From a virus (lineage: Duplodnaviria; Heunggongvirae; Uroviricota; Caudoviricetes): DNA of 29,964 nucleotides. Shown here piece after piece: positions 13,459 through 23,622 of the stretch. The notes below the pieces were generated by a model, which saw only the letters and a list, made by a program, of their open reading frames with translations, made no database searches and was not told the origin of the DNA. The stretch lies in the IMG/VR virus record IMGVR_UViG_2778261393_000002; one strand, written 5' to 3'. The position numbers and the translations under genes were made by a program. Within the stretch, counting starts at the first letter, position 1. Every line of letters starts with the position of its first letter.

Positions 13459-13612
13459 AGGATGATCCTTTTTCTATGTGAATCATCACCACTGCTGACG
13501 CCAATCAGTATGGTGGTGAACTGTGCAGGGTTGGCGTAACCGGGAAAAAGGAACCGGCGCGGATCGCTCCGCCCCCACACAGCCCACCATTGAGATGTGA
13601 CAGTGCAAACGA

Positions 13613-13637
13613 CAATAAAAAAGACGCTGGCGCGTCT
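13613..13637 (-). terminator. tR'-like Rho-independent terminator downstream of Q
   Basis: Stem AGACGC (13622-13627) and GCGTCT (13632-13637) with 4-nt loop, then a U-run on the minus strand (plus-strand AATAAAAA 13613-13620). About 95 nt downstream of the Q stop, as expected for a late-promoter leader terminator. Confidence 0.5.
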
Positions 13638-13731
13638 GTTGTCGCCTTTTTCATCCGGGACGCCAATCCCGACGCCAGATTTTGCTGGCGCGTGAGGAAT
13701 ATAGCCCCGGACAATGTGTCTGGTCAAGCTC

Positions 13732-16656: not shown

Positions 16657-16812
16657 TTACTCCTCAGGTTCGTAAGCTGTGAAGACAGCGACCTCCGTCT
16701 GGCCGGTTCGGATTCGTACCTCGCAGAGGTCTTTCCTCGTTACCAGTGCCGTCACAATGACGGTTAAACAGATGACGATCAGGGCGATTAACATCGCCTT
16801 TTGCTGCTTCAT
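16657..16812 (-). CDS. hokD: Hok/Gef-family type I toxin
   Basis: 51 aa MKQQKAMLIALIVICLTVIVTALVTRKDLCEVRIRTGQTEVAVFTAYEPEE with AAGGAG SD, matching HokD/RelF as recalled. An overlapping upstream frame (to 16869) is the mok-like reading frame. Confidence 0.85.
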   Translation of the reverse strand: MKQQKAMLIALIVICLTVIVTALVTRKDLCEVRIRTGQTEVAVFTAYEPEE

Positions 16813-17023
16813 AGCCTGCTTCTCCTTGCCTTTCGGCACGTAAGAGGCTAACCTAGATTTGCCGTTCATAGATTGAGCCTCAGATTAATGTTAAGCGTCT
16901 TGCAGGACGCGTAATGTTAACTGGGGCTTTTCTCTATCTGCCTTTGGTGTTCATGCCTGAGACAGATAGCCTCAAGCACCCGCAGCCATTCTACTTAACT
17001 CCCGTTACCTCGCCAATATAAAA

Positions 17024-19312: not shown

Positions 19313-20434
19313 TTAGAGCTTATAAAGTTCAATTAATCTGGATTTTTCTCTGTCAAATTCTTCATCAAGATTTGAGAAGTCTGGAAGTGTAACCATTAAA
19401 TCCTTAAGTTGATGAATAACATTCCAGACATCGTAATGAATAAAGGGATTTAAGCCAATTACATTCCCCTCATCATTATTTTTAGATTTCCCTACACCAC
19501 ACAATTTGATGAATTTGTTGATTGCAGTTGTTTCATTCCAGTCCGAGACAAAAAGAAGCAAGGCAGATACAGCCAAAAGGGGGTTATTTTTTTTAACAGC
19601 GGATATACCCCTGATTTTCCTAAAAAGAAATTCGTGATGCCTGGTTATTTTTTGTGCAACTCTTATCGTTGCTTCATATTTTTCTTTAAGCAACCTTCTA
19701 TCATAAACCTGATAACCTCGATCTCGTGCTACTAATCGATGTGCTTGTTTAGTAAATGTGGTACTATTCACAAGATTATAGAAAACAGAATTATTTTCAT
19801 TAGTCATGTCGATCATCAATGATGGATATTTGAATCTTAACGAACGATACACTTCATCGTTTATATCAAACCAGGATTTATTTTTCCTCTCTTCATCTAC
19901 AATATATTTACTTTCTCCCTTACGGGAATACATGCTGGCCCTTATTAGATTGATCATGTGAGGGCTATAGTTAACAGAAAAAGTGCCTGACTGGCGTAAT
20001 TCTGTAAACCATTGCCGCATGTTTCGAATATCTTCCTGATTGAACTCATCATGTTCAATACCTCTACATACAAGCTCGCGAATTATACTTGTAATCTCAG
20101 AACCTGAGGTGCCGAATTTTATAAAACCATCCCTTGATGAATCTATTTGCTTATCATTACCACTGTAATGATCGCAAAATACTTTGTGTGCATCAGTTCC
20201 GTCTTTTGTTCTAAACGAAAAATGAGATTGGCTGACTATCTTATTTGTTCTTTTCGAATAACCTTCTGAAACAACAATCGCACCGCTTACATTGCAAATT
20301 GGGCACTCTGCATCAAAGGCAACAAATTCCTTGAAATCACTGAAATTGAGTGCGTTATCTGATGAGTAATGGTTTAACAATTGAACCATGTCCAATTCCT
20401 TTTTGAATGTACGAGAATAGACCGTAATTGCCAT
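19313..20434 (-). CDS. Hypothetical protein, 373 aa (cargo gene A)
   Basis: Start taken at MAITVYS (codon 20432-20434) with SD AAGGGAG 7 nt upstream. No family recognised. N-terminal Cys/His cluster (ECPICNVSG ... HKVFCDHY). Confidence 0.8.
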   Translation of the reverse strand: MAITVYSRTFKKELDMVQLLNHYSSDNALNFSDFKEFVAFDAECPICNVSGAIVVSEGYSKRTNKIVSQSHFSFRTKDGTDAHKVFCDHYSGNDKQIDSSRDGFIKFGTSGSEITSIIRELVCRGIEHDEFNQEDIRNMRQWFTELRQSGTFSVNYSPHMINLIRASMYSRKGESKYIVDEERKNKSWFDINDEVYRSLRFKYPSLMIDMTNENNSVFYNLVNSTTFTKQAHRLVARDRGYQVYDRRLLKEKYEATIRVAQKITRHHEFLFRKIRGISAVKKNNPLLAVSALLLFVSDWNETTAINKFIKLCGVGKSKNNDEGNVIGLNPFIHYDVWNVIHQLKDLMVTLPDFSNLDEEFDREKSRLIELYKL

Positions 20435-20635
20435 TTGAACTCCCTTCATCATAATTTTGGTTGTATGAAATATTATCGCATAAAGATACTAATGAGCCAG
20501 TAATATAACTAGAAACGACTTTTTGTGGTTCAGCGAACTAGACGTCCGCTCCTGGCACAAAGCGGACAACCACGCTAGCTCTACCCTGTGCCACAAAATG
20601 TCAATTTGCATCTGAACTAATGCACTTTAATCTCG

Positions 20636-21058
20636 TCACTTCAATAAATACCGAACATCACCCTGATAAAACGACAATATGCGCTGCATAACTTCACTCT
20701 TCCGGCACTCGCGACAGATTATGTTCTGACGCCTGTCGTAGCGACGTATTTCTCCGTCAGGTAATGACCAGATAAGGTCCGGATCAACCGCAGATGGTTT
20801 CTTCAGCTTTGCCCTTGAGAGCTTTTTACGGGCATTTTGCCAGTCCTTACGCGCCTGTTCAGACGGGAATAACCCGTAACCAGAGTTGTATACATCGCCG
20901 CTGGCAACCAGCTCTCTTGCGAGAACGCTCATCAGATATCTTGTCGCACCTGTCTTGACTTCCAGTTGCCGTAACGTCTCACGCCCACTCTGGCGTACGA
21001 GTTCAACAACCTGTCCTTTAATTTTTTCCCGCTCTTCTTGTGTAAAAACTTTTGCCAC
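20636..21058 (-). CDS. Hypothetical prophage protein, 140 aa
   Basis: Basic protein with a C-terminal CxxC-like segment (IICRECRK), immediately downstream of the replication gene. Family not recognised. Confidence 0.55.
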   Translation of the reverse strand: MAKVFTQEEREKIKGQVVELVRQSGRETLRQLEVKTGATRYLMSVLARELVASGDVYNSGYGLFPSEQARKDWQNARKKLSRAKLKKPSAVDPDLIWSLPDGEIRRYDRRQNIICRECRKSEVMQRILSFYQGDVRYLLK

Positions 21059-21098
21059 AAGCCCTCCTGAAAATTACCTCATGACCAGAAATTAACAC

Positions 21099-22175
21099 TT
21101 ACCCCCTGAAGCCCGGCGGAATTTCGTTATCCGGTTCAGAAATATGATTCACACAACGCTGGTTGTTCGTGCCGCTTACCGGGAGCAACCAGGGGTTCTC
21201 AAAATTCCGGTCCGGTCCAAAAAACGTCGTCGCTCGCTGAACAAATTCCGTTCCCGTTTTCCCGGTAGCCGCCAAGTATCTTGCGTAACGCCTCACGCCA
21301 TCCAGCATGGCCTCTGGTGGCACCCCCTCGCGTAATCTGGCCTTCCAGGCACTGAAAGCTGATTTCTTCGGGTTTGCTCCGGCACGCAACGGGTACTCCC
21401 GCCAGACCTGTTCGAACACATCCGGATAATCCACTCGTCCCACAGACTGCCCGGTGTTTTCCGGGACTACCCGATCGGCTTCCCGCTGAATGGCGGAATC
21501 GGCTTCGGGCTGCTGCAGTTGGTGTGATTGCTCCAGCCTTGCGGTCATCACCTGCTGCACAGCGCCCGAATCGGCTTTCAGCGCATACGCTGAATCGGCT
21601 TCCGGTGTCGTGCCTGCTGGCTGACCAAGATTGACGGTCTGAACATCCCCTGCCTGGTTCGTGGCGTTTTTTACGCCATGGACCATAGTGTTTTGATCTT
21701 CTTGATCTGTATCTTTATCTGTATCTTTATCTGTCGTGACTCGTCGTGACATGTGCGTGACATTTCGTGACGCGCCGTGACAATCGCCATTTTGTTCCCG
21801 CTTTCTTTCCCTCTCTCGCTGCGCCCTCTTGCGCTCTGCAGGAGATTTTGCGGTTTGCGAAATATTGCCGTTGTCCTCTTTAAGCACCTGGCGTTTTTCC
21901 CATCCAGTGATTAAATCACCATCAAGTACCCGCCCCTGCATCGTCTGCAAAATTGAATCAATTACCTCTTCTGTCACGTCGAGCGCACTTGCCAAATCTT
22001 CTGTCGTGACATCAATGTGACCTCGCGTGACATTTCGTGACGCGCTCACCAGGAGGTGGATATACACTGCCATCACTGTTGCAATTGGCTGCCCTGACAC
22101 CCTGGCAATTGTTCGCCACTTAGGGTCATTTGGCATGTCATGCCATAATCTGAGCCAGGCGTTAGCCATACTCAC
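21099..22175 (-). CDS. Putative phage replication initiation protein with internal origin repeats
   Basis: 358 aa in the O-gene position (after cro and YdaT-like). N-terminal helix-rich domain and an acidic/low-complexity middle (DKDTDKDTDQEDQ). The coding DNA contains two iteron clusters. Confidence 0.55.
   Translation of the reverse strand: MSMANAWLRLWHDMPNDPKWRTIARVSGQPIATVMAVYIHLLVSASRNVTRGHIDVTTEDLASALDVTEEVIDSILQTMQGRVLDGDLITGWEKRQVLKEDNGNISQTAKSPAERKRAQRERERKREQNGDCHGASRNVTHMSRRVTTDKDTDKDTDQEDQNTMVHGVKNATNQAGDVQTVNLGQPAGTTPEADSAYALKADSGAVQQVMTARLEQSHQLQQPEADSAIQREADRVVPENTGQSVGRVDYPDVFEQVWREYPLRAGANPKKSAFSAWKARLREGVPPEAMLDGVRRYARYLAATGKTGTEFVQRATTFFGPDRNFENPWLLPVSGTNNQRCVNHISEPDNEIPPGFRG
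21690..21781. repeat. Iteron cluster 1: five phased CGTGAC repeats plus adjacent tandem repeats
   Basis: CGTGAC at 21735, 21745, 21756, 21766 and 21776 (10-11 bp spacing), preceded by tandem ATCTTTATCTGT x2 and GATCT motifs (21690-21730). Confidence 0.65.
22005..22044. repeat. Iteron cluster 2: four phased (C/T)GTGAC repeats
   Basis: Repeats at 22005, 22015, 22026 and 22036. The 19-mer CGTGACATTTCGTGACGCG at 22026-22044 is an exact copy of 21756-21774. Confidence 0.65.
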
Positions 22176-22240
22176 CTCTTCTGATACCGAATCTTTTTAC
22201 TCACGAGTTGCCGGAAGCGATTCGATATGGCTATTGTCAG

Positions 22241-22666
22241 TCAATGTACTGCCACAGCATTTCCTGCCGGGCCACCACGGTTCATCTGATTGAAACCGGC
22301 GATTGCCACTGCGACAAAATCATCAGCGTCTCTCACCAGCCGCTCCCGCGTCTCCACCAGCTCCCGAAAATAAGCTGAACTGTGGCTGCGCATTCTGGCC
22401 ACCAGCAAAGGTGGCATTGCCTTTTCGATCGCTGGTAACAACGCCTGAATTTTTTCAACTGCATCAGGGGTGTCTTTCTCTATCCAGCGGAAAATTTTCT
22501 GGGTATTGCGAGCCAGGGCGTCCGGATGGCTGTCGTCGTACAGTTCAGGAAACGTCATACCCAACTCAAAATAAGCCTGGGTTATTCCAGCTGCCGGAAC
22601 TTTTTCGCCATCAGGACGTGCCCAGGCATTCATCGCCATGCGGATGTGTTCATGCTTGATTTTCAT
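22241..22666 (-). CDS. YdaT-like protein (cII-position gene)
   Basis: Start taken at MKIKHEHI, which matches the N-terminus of Rac YdaT as recalled. Directly downstream of and overlapping the Cro-like gene. Confidence 0.6.
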   Translation of the reverse strand: MKIKHEHIRMAMNAWARPDGEKVPAAGITQAYFELGMTFPELYDDSHPDALARNTQKIFRWIEKDTPDAVEKIQALLPAIEKAMPPLLVARMRSHSSAYFRELVETRERLVRDADDFVAVAIAGFNQMNRGGPAGNAVAVH

Positions 22667-22892
22667 GAATCCCCCCTTGGTTAGAAGGCGGATTATGATC
22701 AGAACCGGGAATGACAACCGTCGGTATGTGTAACTCATATTTGAGCGCCCCGGCAGTGACTGCCTGAATTAGCAACGCCCATTTCCACGGAACGTCTTCC
22801 CCCCACATGCTGACTGTGGTTTTTGACGTTCCTAGAGCGGCGGCTGTTTTAACAACTCCGCCAAAATAGCCTAATACTTCTGATTTTTTCAT
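22650..22892 (-). CDS. Cro/DicC-like (YdaS-family) HTH regulator
   Basis: 80 aa from MKKSEVLGYFGG (SD GGAG upstream). Divergent from the CI-like repressor across a 91-bp intergenic region. Confidence 0.65.
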   Translation of the reverse strand: MKKSEVLGYFGGVVKTAAALGTSKTTVSMWGEDVPWKWALLIQAVTAGALKYELHIPTVVIPGSDHNPPSNQGGIHENQA

Positions 22893-22983
22893 GATTCGCT
22901 CCATAAAACTGAACGCCAAAAGTTTAATAATCAAAACCAAAGAAAGTCAAGAAACAAAACCATCTGTGTTTTAAAATCAAAAC

Positions 22984-23622
22984 ATGAACAAGCAAACAAT
23001 ATCTGAACGCATAACCCAACGTATGCATGCGCTAAACTTGAAAGGCAAAGACCTTGTCAATGCCACTGGCGCATCAAAAGGCTCCGTAAGTCAATGGATG
23101 AACGGTGGAGGAGCGCCGTCCTCGCGTTACATAAGCTCACTGGCAAAGATATTGAAAGTAAACGAAAATTGGCTTCTTAATGGAGGAGAGTTAAATACAG
23201 GTGATTCGCTTGATCTATCTTTACCGCCGATAAAAACGGTTCCGCTACTATCACTTCAGCAGGCAGCAAGCTGGAGTGATTATATGAAAAATTCCTCAAT
23301 AACCTCTTGTGTGCAGCTTGTCGGAGAAATCCCGGCCAATACCTTTGCTGTTGTTCTAGAGAGTGACAGTATGTCGACATCTGGTGGTGGAGTTTCCATC
23401 CCAAATGGTTCAACAGTTTTTGTTGATCCCGATCGAATCGTACAACCAGGAAATATTGTCCTTGCCTTACCCAAAGGGACCACAACGCCTGTCATTCGCA
23501 AACTGGAGATAGAAGGGCCGGATATTCTTTTAGTCCCCACGAATCCTCGCTACCCTTCAATTATGCTGGATGATCTATCTTGCATATTGGGAGTATGCTT
23601 TAAAATTCAACAAGATATTTAA
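22984..23622 (+). CDS. CI-like repressor with N-terminal HTH and C-terminal S24 (LexA-like) peptidase domain
   Basis: 212 aa. N-terminal XRE-type HTH (LKGKDLVNATGASKGSVSQWMNG). C-terminal peptidase region with SDSMS serine and a downstream Lys (VIRKLE). Confidence 0.85.
   Translation: MNKQTISERITQRMHALNLKGKDLVNATGASKGSVSQWMNGGGAPSSRYISSLAKILKVNENWLLNGGELNTGDSLDLSLPPIKTVPLLSLQQAASWSDYMKNSSITSCVQLVGEIPANTFAVVLESDSMSTSGGGVSIPNGSTVFVDPDRIVQPGNIVLALPKGTTTPVIRKLEIEGPDILLVPTNPRYPSIMLDDLSCILGVCFKIQQDI

Follow-up and report, generated by a model that had tools for sequence, protein, structure and literature searches.

Where does a tailed phage begin to replicate its DNA when the gene of its putative initiator carries two separate clusters of short phased repeats, and what would the second cluster be for? 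This question is posed by a gene on the minus strand of a 29,964-nucleotide (nt) stretch of viral DNA (IMG/VR record IMGVR_UViG_2778261393_000002, Caudoviricetes; the whole stretch is referred to here as the window), in which the hexamer GTCACG, read as CGTGAC on the plus strand, forms two arrays designated A and B. Purifying selection acts on both arrays at the DNA level, and the two evolve in concert throughout the family to which the gene belongs. The reading favoured here, with moderate confidence, is that of an initiator-embedded origin made of array A and an adjacent unwinding element, with array B as an auxiliary cis-acting array upstream. An origin inside the initiator gene is already known from lambda and SPP1; the element for which a literature search gave no earlier description is array B, located in the part of the gene that codes for the presumed DNA-binding domain. 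The features on which the argument depends are as follows.

21099-22169, minus strand: the initiator (replisome-organizer) gene, 356 amino acids (aa) from the ATG, according to the list of open reading frames (ORFs), RefSeq and PHROG.
21735-21781, minus strand: array A, five exact GTCACG copies at coding-strand steps of 10/10/11/10 nt, encoding aa 130-145 in the inter-domain linker.
22005-22041, minus strand: array B, made of GTCACG, GTCACG, GTCACA and GTCACG at coding-strand steps of 10/10/11 nt.
21973-21978, plus strand: a single inverted iteron, CGTGAC on the coding strand, 26 nt past the last B iteron.
21685-21734, minus strand: an AT-rich tract, polypurine on the coding strand, (ACAGATAAAGAT)x3 plus the following bases, a candidate DNA unwinding element.

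Array A had been described in a first-pass annotation of this DNA as five CGTGAC repeats at 10-11-base-pair (bp) spacing at 21735-21781, and the description holds: all five copies are exact and start, on the plus strand, at 21735, 21745, 21756, 21766 and 21776 (spacing 10, 11, 10, 10). In the case of array B, announced as a cluster of four at 22005-22041 that included an exact 19-nt copy, the place and the four slots were correctly given, but the copies are not all exact, since CGTGAC is found at 22005, 22026 and 22036 and the slot at 22016 holds TGTGAC, with one mismatch (spacing 11, 10, 10). The exact copy common to the two arrays is also present, but it measures 21 nt instead of 19 (21755-21775 = 22025-22045). 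Array B lies about 130 nt into the ORF, some 230-260 bp upstream of array A in the direction of transcription, and encodes aa 43-55, where helix 3 of the N-terminal domain (N-domain) ends and a loop leads to helix 4; the D-V-T codons that spell the inverted iteron belong to the turn of the helix-turn-helix. Of the 17 CGTGAC/GTCACG sites of the window, nine are concentrated in 307 nt, and the chain of five hexamers at 10-11-nt steps is the sole chain of at least three in the window; among 300 windows shuffled by a first-order Markov procedure, the longest chain was of two hexamers in 299 and of three in one. At least three direct repeats at helical spacing (about 10-11 or 20-22 bp), as looked for in an iteron-type origin, are thus found in array A and in the three exact plus one near copies of array B. 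No further iteron cluster was found elsewhere in the window, nor in the 36.7-kilobase (kb) partial genome record of a related phage.

Are these repeats of the DNA or of the protein that it encodes? A duplicated peptide motif (SRNVT...VT) with no role at the DNA level might be proposed, and S-R-N-V-T is in fact encoded twice, at aa 44-48 and 134-138. However, the period of 10-11 nt is not a multiple of three, and the copies are located in all three reading frames (2, 3, 1, 3, 1 in array A and 3, 1, 2, 1 in array B) and translate as V-T, S-R or C-H/G-H, which argues that the repeat unit is DNA and not peptide. In addition, among the relatives described below the linker peptides vary and the DNA cores persist, the synonymous codons of the cores are fixed, and the repeats of the AT-rich tract recur even in G+C-rich genes, so that the peptide explanation can be regarded as extremely improbable.

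An AT-rich element adjacent to the repeats, also looked for in an iteron-type origin, is found in the window and at all 46 family loci that have an A array. In the window the tract lies directly after array A in the direction of transcription, has an AT content of 72-75% (21685-21734) versus 46% over the gene, and holds the most AT-rich 40-mers of 21000-22300. The tandem repeats that had been reported before array A were recovered at 21700-21734 with a period of 12, 2.9 copies and 95% matches (unit TCTTTATCTGTA; Tandem Repeats Finder). Across the family, the 42 nt that follow the A array are AT-rich in 46/46 loci, with a mean of 67%, the gene having 45% (Wilcoxon p = 3.5e-9), and GATAAA/GATACA repeats, read as DKDK or DTDT, occur at least three times in 23 of the 46, some of them with G+C-rich genes, which points to a constraint on the tract at the DNA level. 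Array A and the AT-rich tract (nt 389-485 from the ATG, or 395-491 from the GTG start of the ORF list, encoding aa ~130-160) are likely to constitute the origin and to be bound by the product of the gene that holds them. The earlier proposal of a probable phage origin inside the initiator gene, in the manner of lambda O/ori, gains support from the iterons being followed by an AT-rich tract, from their place in the linker-coding middle of the gene and from the direction of transcription. A scan of 21000-22300 revealed no DnaA-box or integration host factor (IHF) consensus inside the initiator gene; a DnaA-box-like match at 21039 falls in the neighbouring gene. Two GATC (Dam) sites are located in the tract, at 21695 and 21704, 9 nt apart, and one further GATC only, at 21473, exists in 21000-22300; the pair could tie melting to the methylation state or to SeqA.

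In lambda, four 18-bp iterons and a 38-bp AT-rich stretch are located inside O (PMC3349717). The present gene resembles lambda O/ori in having the putative origin mid-gene, between the N-terminal origin-binding and the C-terminal domains, with four to five direct repeats and then, in the direction of pR transcription, an AT-rich tract, and it resembles O, as well as P22 gene 18 and other lambdoid O genes, in its place in the early-right operon after cro-like and CII-like genes. Another likeness to lambdoid O genes is the exchange of N-domain and iterons as one module against different C-terminal parts. On the other hand, the cores are here of 6 bp at 10-11-bp steps, in contrast with the 18-19-bp iterons at ~20-bp steps of lambda; no P-like, DnaC-like or DnaB-like gene follows the initiator gene; and a conserved second array is located inside the N-domain coding part. 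Lambda is not known to have such a second iteron array. The initiator does not match Pfam Phage_rep_O even at E ≤ 10, and thus it would work like lambda O without being a member of its family.

Another parallel is found in SPP1, whose experimentally proven oriL lies within gene 38, and where the iterons (AB boxes) and an AT-rich unwinding element of that gene suffice for G38P-dependent replication in vitro (PMC5737612); oriR constitutes a second G38P-binding region (PMC5737612, PMC3485210). The repeats and the AT-rich stretch appear in the sequence of gene 38 at gene nt ~362-449, in the linker right after the N-domain, i.e., at the same linker position as array A, and no second repeat family was seen in the sequence of its N-domain part. 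The initiator also bears the family name of G38P, 'phage replisome organizer', at NCBI, and it matches PHROG replisome-organizer families. According to the original SPP1 work, oriR is said to lie tens of kilobases away in non-coding DNA, unlike array B, which is ~250 bp away inside the same gene. Homology to G38P is not claimed, since BLASTP of the initiator against it over the corresponding region gave a non-significant E = 0.38; moreover, the Phg_2220_C (DnaD-like) domain of G38P, with E = 2e-20 in G38P itself, was not detected in the initiator by Pfam.

Further evidence on array B comes from the relatives of the gene. Sixty genome loci were gathered by means of two N-domain peptides (W[LF]RLWHDM and P[NT]DPKWRT), in a sampling blind to the iterons, and the analysed set comprises 56 genes, namely the usable loci of the 60 together with the window gene and that of phage phi1 (55 from other genomes). 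A scan of viral contigs with the N-domain gave 80 loci, all 100% identical over the query, and the diversity was provided by a scan of genome contigs in which an alignment served as the query. The hosts of the family include Enterobacterales, Pseudomonas, Burkholderiales (Bordetella, Acidovorax, Janthinobacterium), sphingomonads, Acidobacteria and others. When the first 660 nt of each gene were considered, the commonest hexamers clustered at nt ~129-165 (zone B) and nt ~350-450 (A), in 10-11-nt steps, and in most of the family the linker has phased arrays at the corresponding place. Four hexamer classes are used by different lineages, GTCACG, GTAACG, CGAACG(C) and GTGACG. Both arrays are present in 43 of the 56 genes, and the class is equal in B and A in 43/43; no gene shows a clear discordance. 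One locus, L137, is mixed, its zone B holding CGAACG and GTGACG and its array A only GTGACG, and it may represent a specificity switch caught in transit. In a neighbour-joining tree of the N-domain minus the B-encoded residues, the GTAACG class is found at no fewer than five separate places, and this repeated, concerted switching of iteron type offers a natural experiment on the evolution of initiator-origin specificity. The hexamer of each gene was also defined from the linker zone alone and then counted elsewhere, with the following result.

Zone B: 103 hexamer hits in 2,736 nt (37.6 per kb).
Rest of the N-domain: 6 hexamer hits in 9,582 nt (0.63 per kb).
C-terminal part: 4 hexamer hits in 13,937 nt (0.29 per kb).

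The presence of two separated clusters, which had been remarked upon as unusual, is thus a property of a wide family, in which the second cluster is conserved and co-varies with the first. In-frame insertions of 21 nt, equivalent to two iterons, have occurred at B in two lineages (L085, from E. albertii, and L104/L107/L108), longer insertions that add iterons are found in L117 and L126, and the upstream array of L136 is located ~60 nt further along, in the helix-turn-helix coding part. From the displacement of the array in the latter and the insertions in the others it follows that the conserved thing is an upstream binding-site array and not a peptide. In some relatives, a direct iteron copy is written by means of other synonymous D-V-T codons in place of the inverted copy.

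Codon usage bears on the same point. In a set of 20 GTCACG-class genes without insertions or deletions, whose N-domain parts have a median identity of 68% in DNA, normalised codon entropy ranged between 0 and 0.28 at the 8 codons whose third base falls in a B core, compared with a median of 0.845 at the other conserved codons (n = 50; Mann-Whitney p = 5.9e-6); the other conserved four- and six-fold codons showed 1.5-2.5 bits of codon entropy. The codons of the B cores are used as follows.

Ser: TCA in 19 of 20 genes.
Val, first: GTC in 20 of 20 genes.
Thr, first: ACG in 20 of 20 genes.
Gly: GGT in 20 of 20 genes.
His: CAC in 19 of 19 genes.
Val, second: GTC in 20 of 20 genes.
Thr, second: ACG in 19 of 20 genes.

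In the inverted copy, the Val codon is GTG in the 17 genes (17/17) that have Val there. The scenario named in the first-pass annotation as a refutation, in which the repeats are merely a duplicated coding segment, is contradicted by these frozen synonymous sites across 20 genes as well as by the copies in all three frames. Two arrays of protein-binding sites would be superimposed on all three frames of one coding sequence, an unusually clean overlap of codes with measurable effects on codon choice, on the sequence of the loop and on in-frame insertions (21 nt, two iteron units).

Could array B nevertheless be a functionless by-product, generated again and again from array A by gene conversion or slippage into a permissive loop-coding segment? 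Sequence exchange between the arrays does take place, as shown by the spacers that B and A share within genomes (the 21-mer in the window and longer stretches in L126, L115 and L124), and the B-encoded loop accepts many sequences and is a permissive spot that tolerates in-frame insertions adding iterons. However, B occupies the same place in 43/56 genes of diverse hosts, with 10-11-nt phasing and three to four copies, and its synonymous sites are frozen at ~68% DNA identity, whereas neutral conversion tracts would decay and scatter. The by-product explanation is considered very improbable, and both arrays are very probably functional DNA elements. Spacers, and not only cores, are common to B and A, and their concerted change probably proceeds by gene conversion between them.

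Which protein would read the arrays? The gene product can be divided into the following parts.

21882-22169, minus strand: N-terminal winged-helix domain, presumed to bind the origin (aa ~1-96; AlphaFold2 model).
21099-21698, minus strand: C-terminal module (aa ~158-356), found behind unrelated N-domains in other phages.
21102-21173, minus strand: DnaT-like tail, the last 24 codons, equivalent to positions 156-179 of 179 of NCBIfam DnaT (E = 6.6e-4).

The AlphaFold2 model of the N-domain has a mean predicted local distance difference test score (pLDDT) of 82, with helices at 4-14, 16-25, 29-45, 56-63 and 67-77 and a beta hairpin at 78-88, and the top of a non-significant Foldseek list is occupied by winged-helix regulators, which was taken only as a hint of the fold. 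An alignment with Pfam Phage_rep_org_N, below the threshold, is colinear (aa 7-124 with profile positions 1-118 of 121). In two phages the modules have been exchanged. By tblastn, Pseudomonas phage phi1 has an unannotated ORF with 69.5% identity to residues 3-140; the C-terminal part of this ORF is different, and a Toprim-DnaB-type primase-helicase gene comes next. In turn, 'primosomal protein I' of Shigella phage 75/02 matches residues 160-358 (358-aa numbering) with 63% identity; its N-terminal part has no similarity in the same tblastn, and the next gene encodes a DnaC/IstB-type loader. Phage phi1 retains both GTCACG arrays, in mixed frames, and the AT-rich tract past the linker array; the gene of phage 75/02 holds no GTCACG array. 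Given that phi1 has the same N-domain and the iterons and 75/02 has neither, the iterons travel with the N-domain. The joint of the module swap lies in array A and the AT-rich tract, i.e., in the putative origin itself, as in lambdoid O genes. These swaps also bear on the idea that something other than the gene's own product, whether encoded by the host or elsewhere in the phage, binds the arrays. Such a factor would fit with the finding that no N-domain residues outside the B-encoded loop were identified as tracking the hexamer class; however, the arrays follow the N-domain through the swaps (present in phi1, absent from 75/02), and a conserved host factor would leave unaccounted for the repeated switches of class in a single protein family whose hosts differ widely. 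This idea is thus held to be highly improbable.

With the gene's own product as the presumed ligand, a mechanism can be outlined. Monomers of the N-domain would bind the 6-bp GTCACG cores, which lie on one face of the helix because they recur every 10-11 bp. A filament of initiator on array A would then promote melting of 21685-21734, and the helicase would be loaded at the melted AT-rich tract. A basic, disordered linker joins the N-terminal winged helix to the C-terminal module, and the latter would presumably recruit the host helicase machinery. Array B would act as a second binding array for the same protein, raising the local concentration of initiator and bridging to A by looping, and would in this manner stabilise the nucleoprotein complex. 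That B acts positively on initiation is in itself placed slightly short of an even chance; a positive role, by looping or by cooperative loading, is favoured because B is so widely kept and because L120, the only clear case of a relative that has a strong origin and no B, carries seven A copies versus three to five.

Alternatively, array A and the AT-rich tract could be the origin and array B a control locus, acting by titration of the initiator, by 'handcuffing' with A or as a roadblock to transcription from pR; in the latter case the roadblock would be initiator-dependent and would limit both the synthesis of the initiator and the transcriptional activation of the origin. Array B shares cores and orientation with A, which is the arrangement of the control iterons in plasmids P1 (incA) and F (incC). 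In these plasmids the clusters flank rep in non-coding DNA, and the second cluster exerts negative control of copy number. The present locus is like P1 incC/incA and F ori2/incC in having two clusters of the same repeat, one beside an AT-rich region and one separate, and unlike them in that both clusters lie within coding sequence and the element is the putative origin of a lytic/temperate phage. When the comparison with the plasmid-type second locus is extended to the family, the same iteron forms a second cluster here but not in L120 and L140, which suggests that B is dispensable for the basic origin. In favour of a control role, B is positioned upstream of A, ~130 nt into the ORF, the stretch from the pR-like site to the gene has no promoter-like site, and B is retained in genes that fuse the N-domain to an HNH nuclease and possess neither A array nor AT-rich tract. 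The conserved pair of direct and inverted copies (GTCACG, 26 nt, CGTGAC) recalls the operators of plasmid Rep proteins; in iteron plasmids, inverted repeats serve as operators for Rep dimers. On the other hand, a phage origin used in the lytic phase has no obvious need for restraint of copy number, no promoter-like site was found at B for classical autorepression, and the seven A copies of the B-less L120 (versus three to five) look more like a compensation for the loss of a positive element than like the lifting of a negative one. Promoter and terminator scans of the initiator region gave chance-level results only, and Rfam gave no family in the initiator interval, so that an RNA element or an internal promoter is unsupported. 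Array B as a control locus is a serious rival explanation, although less likely than not.

Several points weigh against the favoured reading of an initiator-embedded origin with B as an auxiliary array. With regard to the protein, the best Foldseek hit of the N-domain model in PDB was not significant (E = 0.39), the Phage_rep_org_N score of the initiator in Pfam is 12.8 bits versus a cut-off of 23.3, and according to the ORF list, Pfam and PHROG a helicase or loader gene after the initiator gene is absent in this prophage. With regard to the arrays, B is not universal, since L120 (seven copies) and L140 (four to five copies) carry only A, and nine loci have no clear array of exact hexamers when the four classes are used. 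The distance from B to A varies between 127 and 340 nt and a helical phase is not demonstrable: a Rayleigh test of B-A phasing gave an apparent significance at a 10-nt period that is confounded by the gain and loss of end iterons (~10 nt) and by kinship among loci, and a rigid loop is consequently not favoured. The shared spacers allow a mechanical co-variation of B and A through gene conversion, instead of independent selection on each array. The N-domain-HNH fusion genes retain B without any A array, and thus a role tied to the N-domain, for example in self-regulation, fits B at least as well as a role in the origin. Finally, a literature search, with sparse coverage of older phage work, found no paper on the origin of this family, and within the same limits no description of a gene-internal bipartite phage origin.

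A bolder reading can be offered only tentatively. The two arrays could form a bipartite, self-encoded origin, with sites in the linker and in a loop of the very domain that reads them, and would then represent a new architectural class of phage origin. The arrays would be kept identical by gene conversion, so that a change of specificity would sweep both at once, as would have happened at least five times, and B would be a required cis element, either looping to A or gating transcription from pR into the origin. Satellite phage P4 provides a precedent for two parts: the same short iteron forms two sets, ori and crr, both bound by the initiator and both needed in cis. These are ~4.5 kb apart, and the alpha initiator is a primase-helicase. 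The present locus would be like P4 ori/crr in having separated sets of one short iteron and is unlike it in that alpha is unrelated to the initiator described here and no P4 element lies in the coding sequence of a DNA-binding domain. If the bipartite reading were true, new replication 'incompatibility types' would exist among competing prophages, and the N-domain-HNH fusions would be nucleases directed against competing origins of their own type.

The location of the arrays inside a replication gene, as first annotated, is well founded. Both fall within one minus-strand ORF, which appears in the program-made list as 21099-22175 with a GTG start at 22175 (358 aa); the RefSeq coding sequence in E. 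coli UTI89 has 1071 nt and an ATG start equivalent to window position 22169. The best family of the initiator is PHROG 3729, 'replication initiation protein' (E = 3e-257), with a further match to PHROG 1701, 'DnaD-like helicase loader' (E = 7e-63), and weaker ones to the replisome-organizer families 4880 (E = 4e-6) and 5968 (E = 2e-4). The exact protein sequence, seen on 509 contigs, is named 'phage replisome organizer' at NCBI. No Pfam family was assigned to the initiator at default thresholds (E ≤ 0.01), and at E ≤ 10 only HTH_Crp_2, Phage_rep_org_N and PhyR_sigma2 appeared, all of them sub-threshold. The other refuting scenario of the first-pass annotation, that of a protein from a non-replicative family, is at odds with PHROG 3729, with the NCBI name and with the place of the gene in a lambdoid early operon. 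In the 15 best-matching genomes the RefSeq product name is 'hypothetical protein', and the UTI89 record has no annotated origin feature.

The C-terminal module is matched by PHROG 1701, 26426 and 270, and its end raises a question of its own. The tail of the initiator, ...QRCVNHISEPDNEIPPGFRG, is almost the same as that at the C-terminus of host DnaT, ...RDVNTVSEPDSQIPPGFRG, and the DnaT chains 6aep, 2ru8 and 9zbt of PDB align to it as ...VN.[IV]SEPD..IPPGFRG. The full-length DnaT model gives 19.4 bits versus a cut-off of 201, and the last 24 residues alone align; the initiator thus carries a borrowed DnaT tail and is no homologue of DnaT. This tail may hook the initiator onto the partner of the DnaT tail. 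How DnaT itself brings in DnaB/DnaC is, according to the literature, not yet known (PMC5778457, PMC13377028). A DnaT-like tail with no adjacent loader gene would be a candidate route into the host replication-restart or DnaB/DnaC machinery; in relatives, the gene after the initiator encodes either a Toprim-DnaB helicase or a loader of the DnaC type.

Directly after the AT-rich tract, the following structure is found.

21655-21685, no strand assigned: an imperfect palindrome with 13-bp arms and a 5-nt loop.

As single-stranded DNA of the plus strand it folds with -10.9 kcal/mol (z = -5.1), and on that strand, antisense to the gene, it resembles a terminator. In Shigella phage 75/02 it is retained, and the pair that closes the loop is flipped from T-A to A-T. 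The palindrome belongs to the C-terminal module and is absent from the other C-terminal-module types of the family. As a family feature it was rejected, having been found in only 5/46 loci under criteria that also missed the imperfect palindrome of the window itself.

The surroundings of the initiator gene are those of the early-right operon of a lambdoid E. coli prophage, in which the initiator comes after the cro-like and the CII-like/YdaT genes.

22984-23622, opposite strand to the initiator gene: LexA/CI-like repressor gene.
22650-22940, minus strand: Cro-like gene.
22241-22738, minus strand: YdaT/CII-like gene, 165 aa in the ORF list.
20636-21058: DUF977/Ren-like gene, downstream of the initiator gene.

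The DUF977/Ren-like gene is followed by that of a 379-aa protein of unknown function, and a P-like partner gene does not appear in this order. The 379-aa ORF (19313-20452, minus strand) is located two genes past the initiator, where lambdoid phages often have replication or nin genes, and phrog_12525 (unknown function, E = 8e-148) is its sole match, with none in Pfam or NCBIfam. The YdaT/CII-like and Cro-like ORFs overlap by 89 nt in the ORF list; the RefSeq versions in UTI89 are shorter (YdaT family gene of 426 nt, Cro/CI gene of 243 nt), and the real starts of both ORFs are probably internal. The homologous prophage of UTI89 adjoins ompW. The module has a match in 4,217/5,426 complete E. coli genomes, of which 1,559 cover at least 80% of the 2.4-kb query. 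The location of the origin would provide a handle on the induction and replication of these prophages, including Shiga toxin (Stx) phage relatives with the same C-terminal module, as well as on phage-derived replicons and on the prediction of replication interference between co-resident prophages.

A separate observation concerns proteins of ~180-190 aa that join, in frame, the same winged-helix N-domain and an HNH nuclease (Pfam PF01844/PF14279). They were found in P0040, P0059, P0060, P0072, P0092, P0094, P0101 and P0119, in L144 (4001-4546) and in L142. The fusion point lies just before the would-be place of array A, and both GTCACG-type and CGAACG-type loop peptides are represented, with nearly identical HNH parts behind different N-domains. 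The fusion gene of L144 has four GTCACG copies at the B position and no A array, and is followed by an initiator gene of the 75/02 type. These fusions may be origin-targeted nucleases, or they may reflect the invasion of initiator genes, at the origin, by an HNH element.

Two further loci on the minus strand of the window were detected with Rfam. A C4 antisense RNA at 13509-13594, its a1/b1 target motif at 13652-13704 and isrK at 13617-13691 are elements of a P1/P7-type antisense system of immunity and antirepressor control in this lambdoid prophage. Finally, a sok antitoxin RNA was detected at 16807-16981 with 110 bits, and hokD is annotated in the matching part of the map of the UTI89 prophage; on the basis of both, 16807-16981 is probably a hok/sok type I toxin-antitoxin locus.

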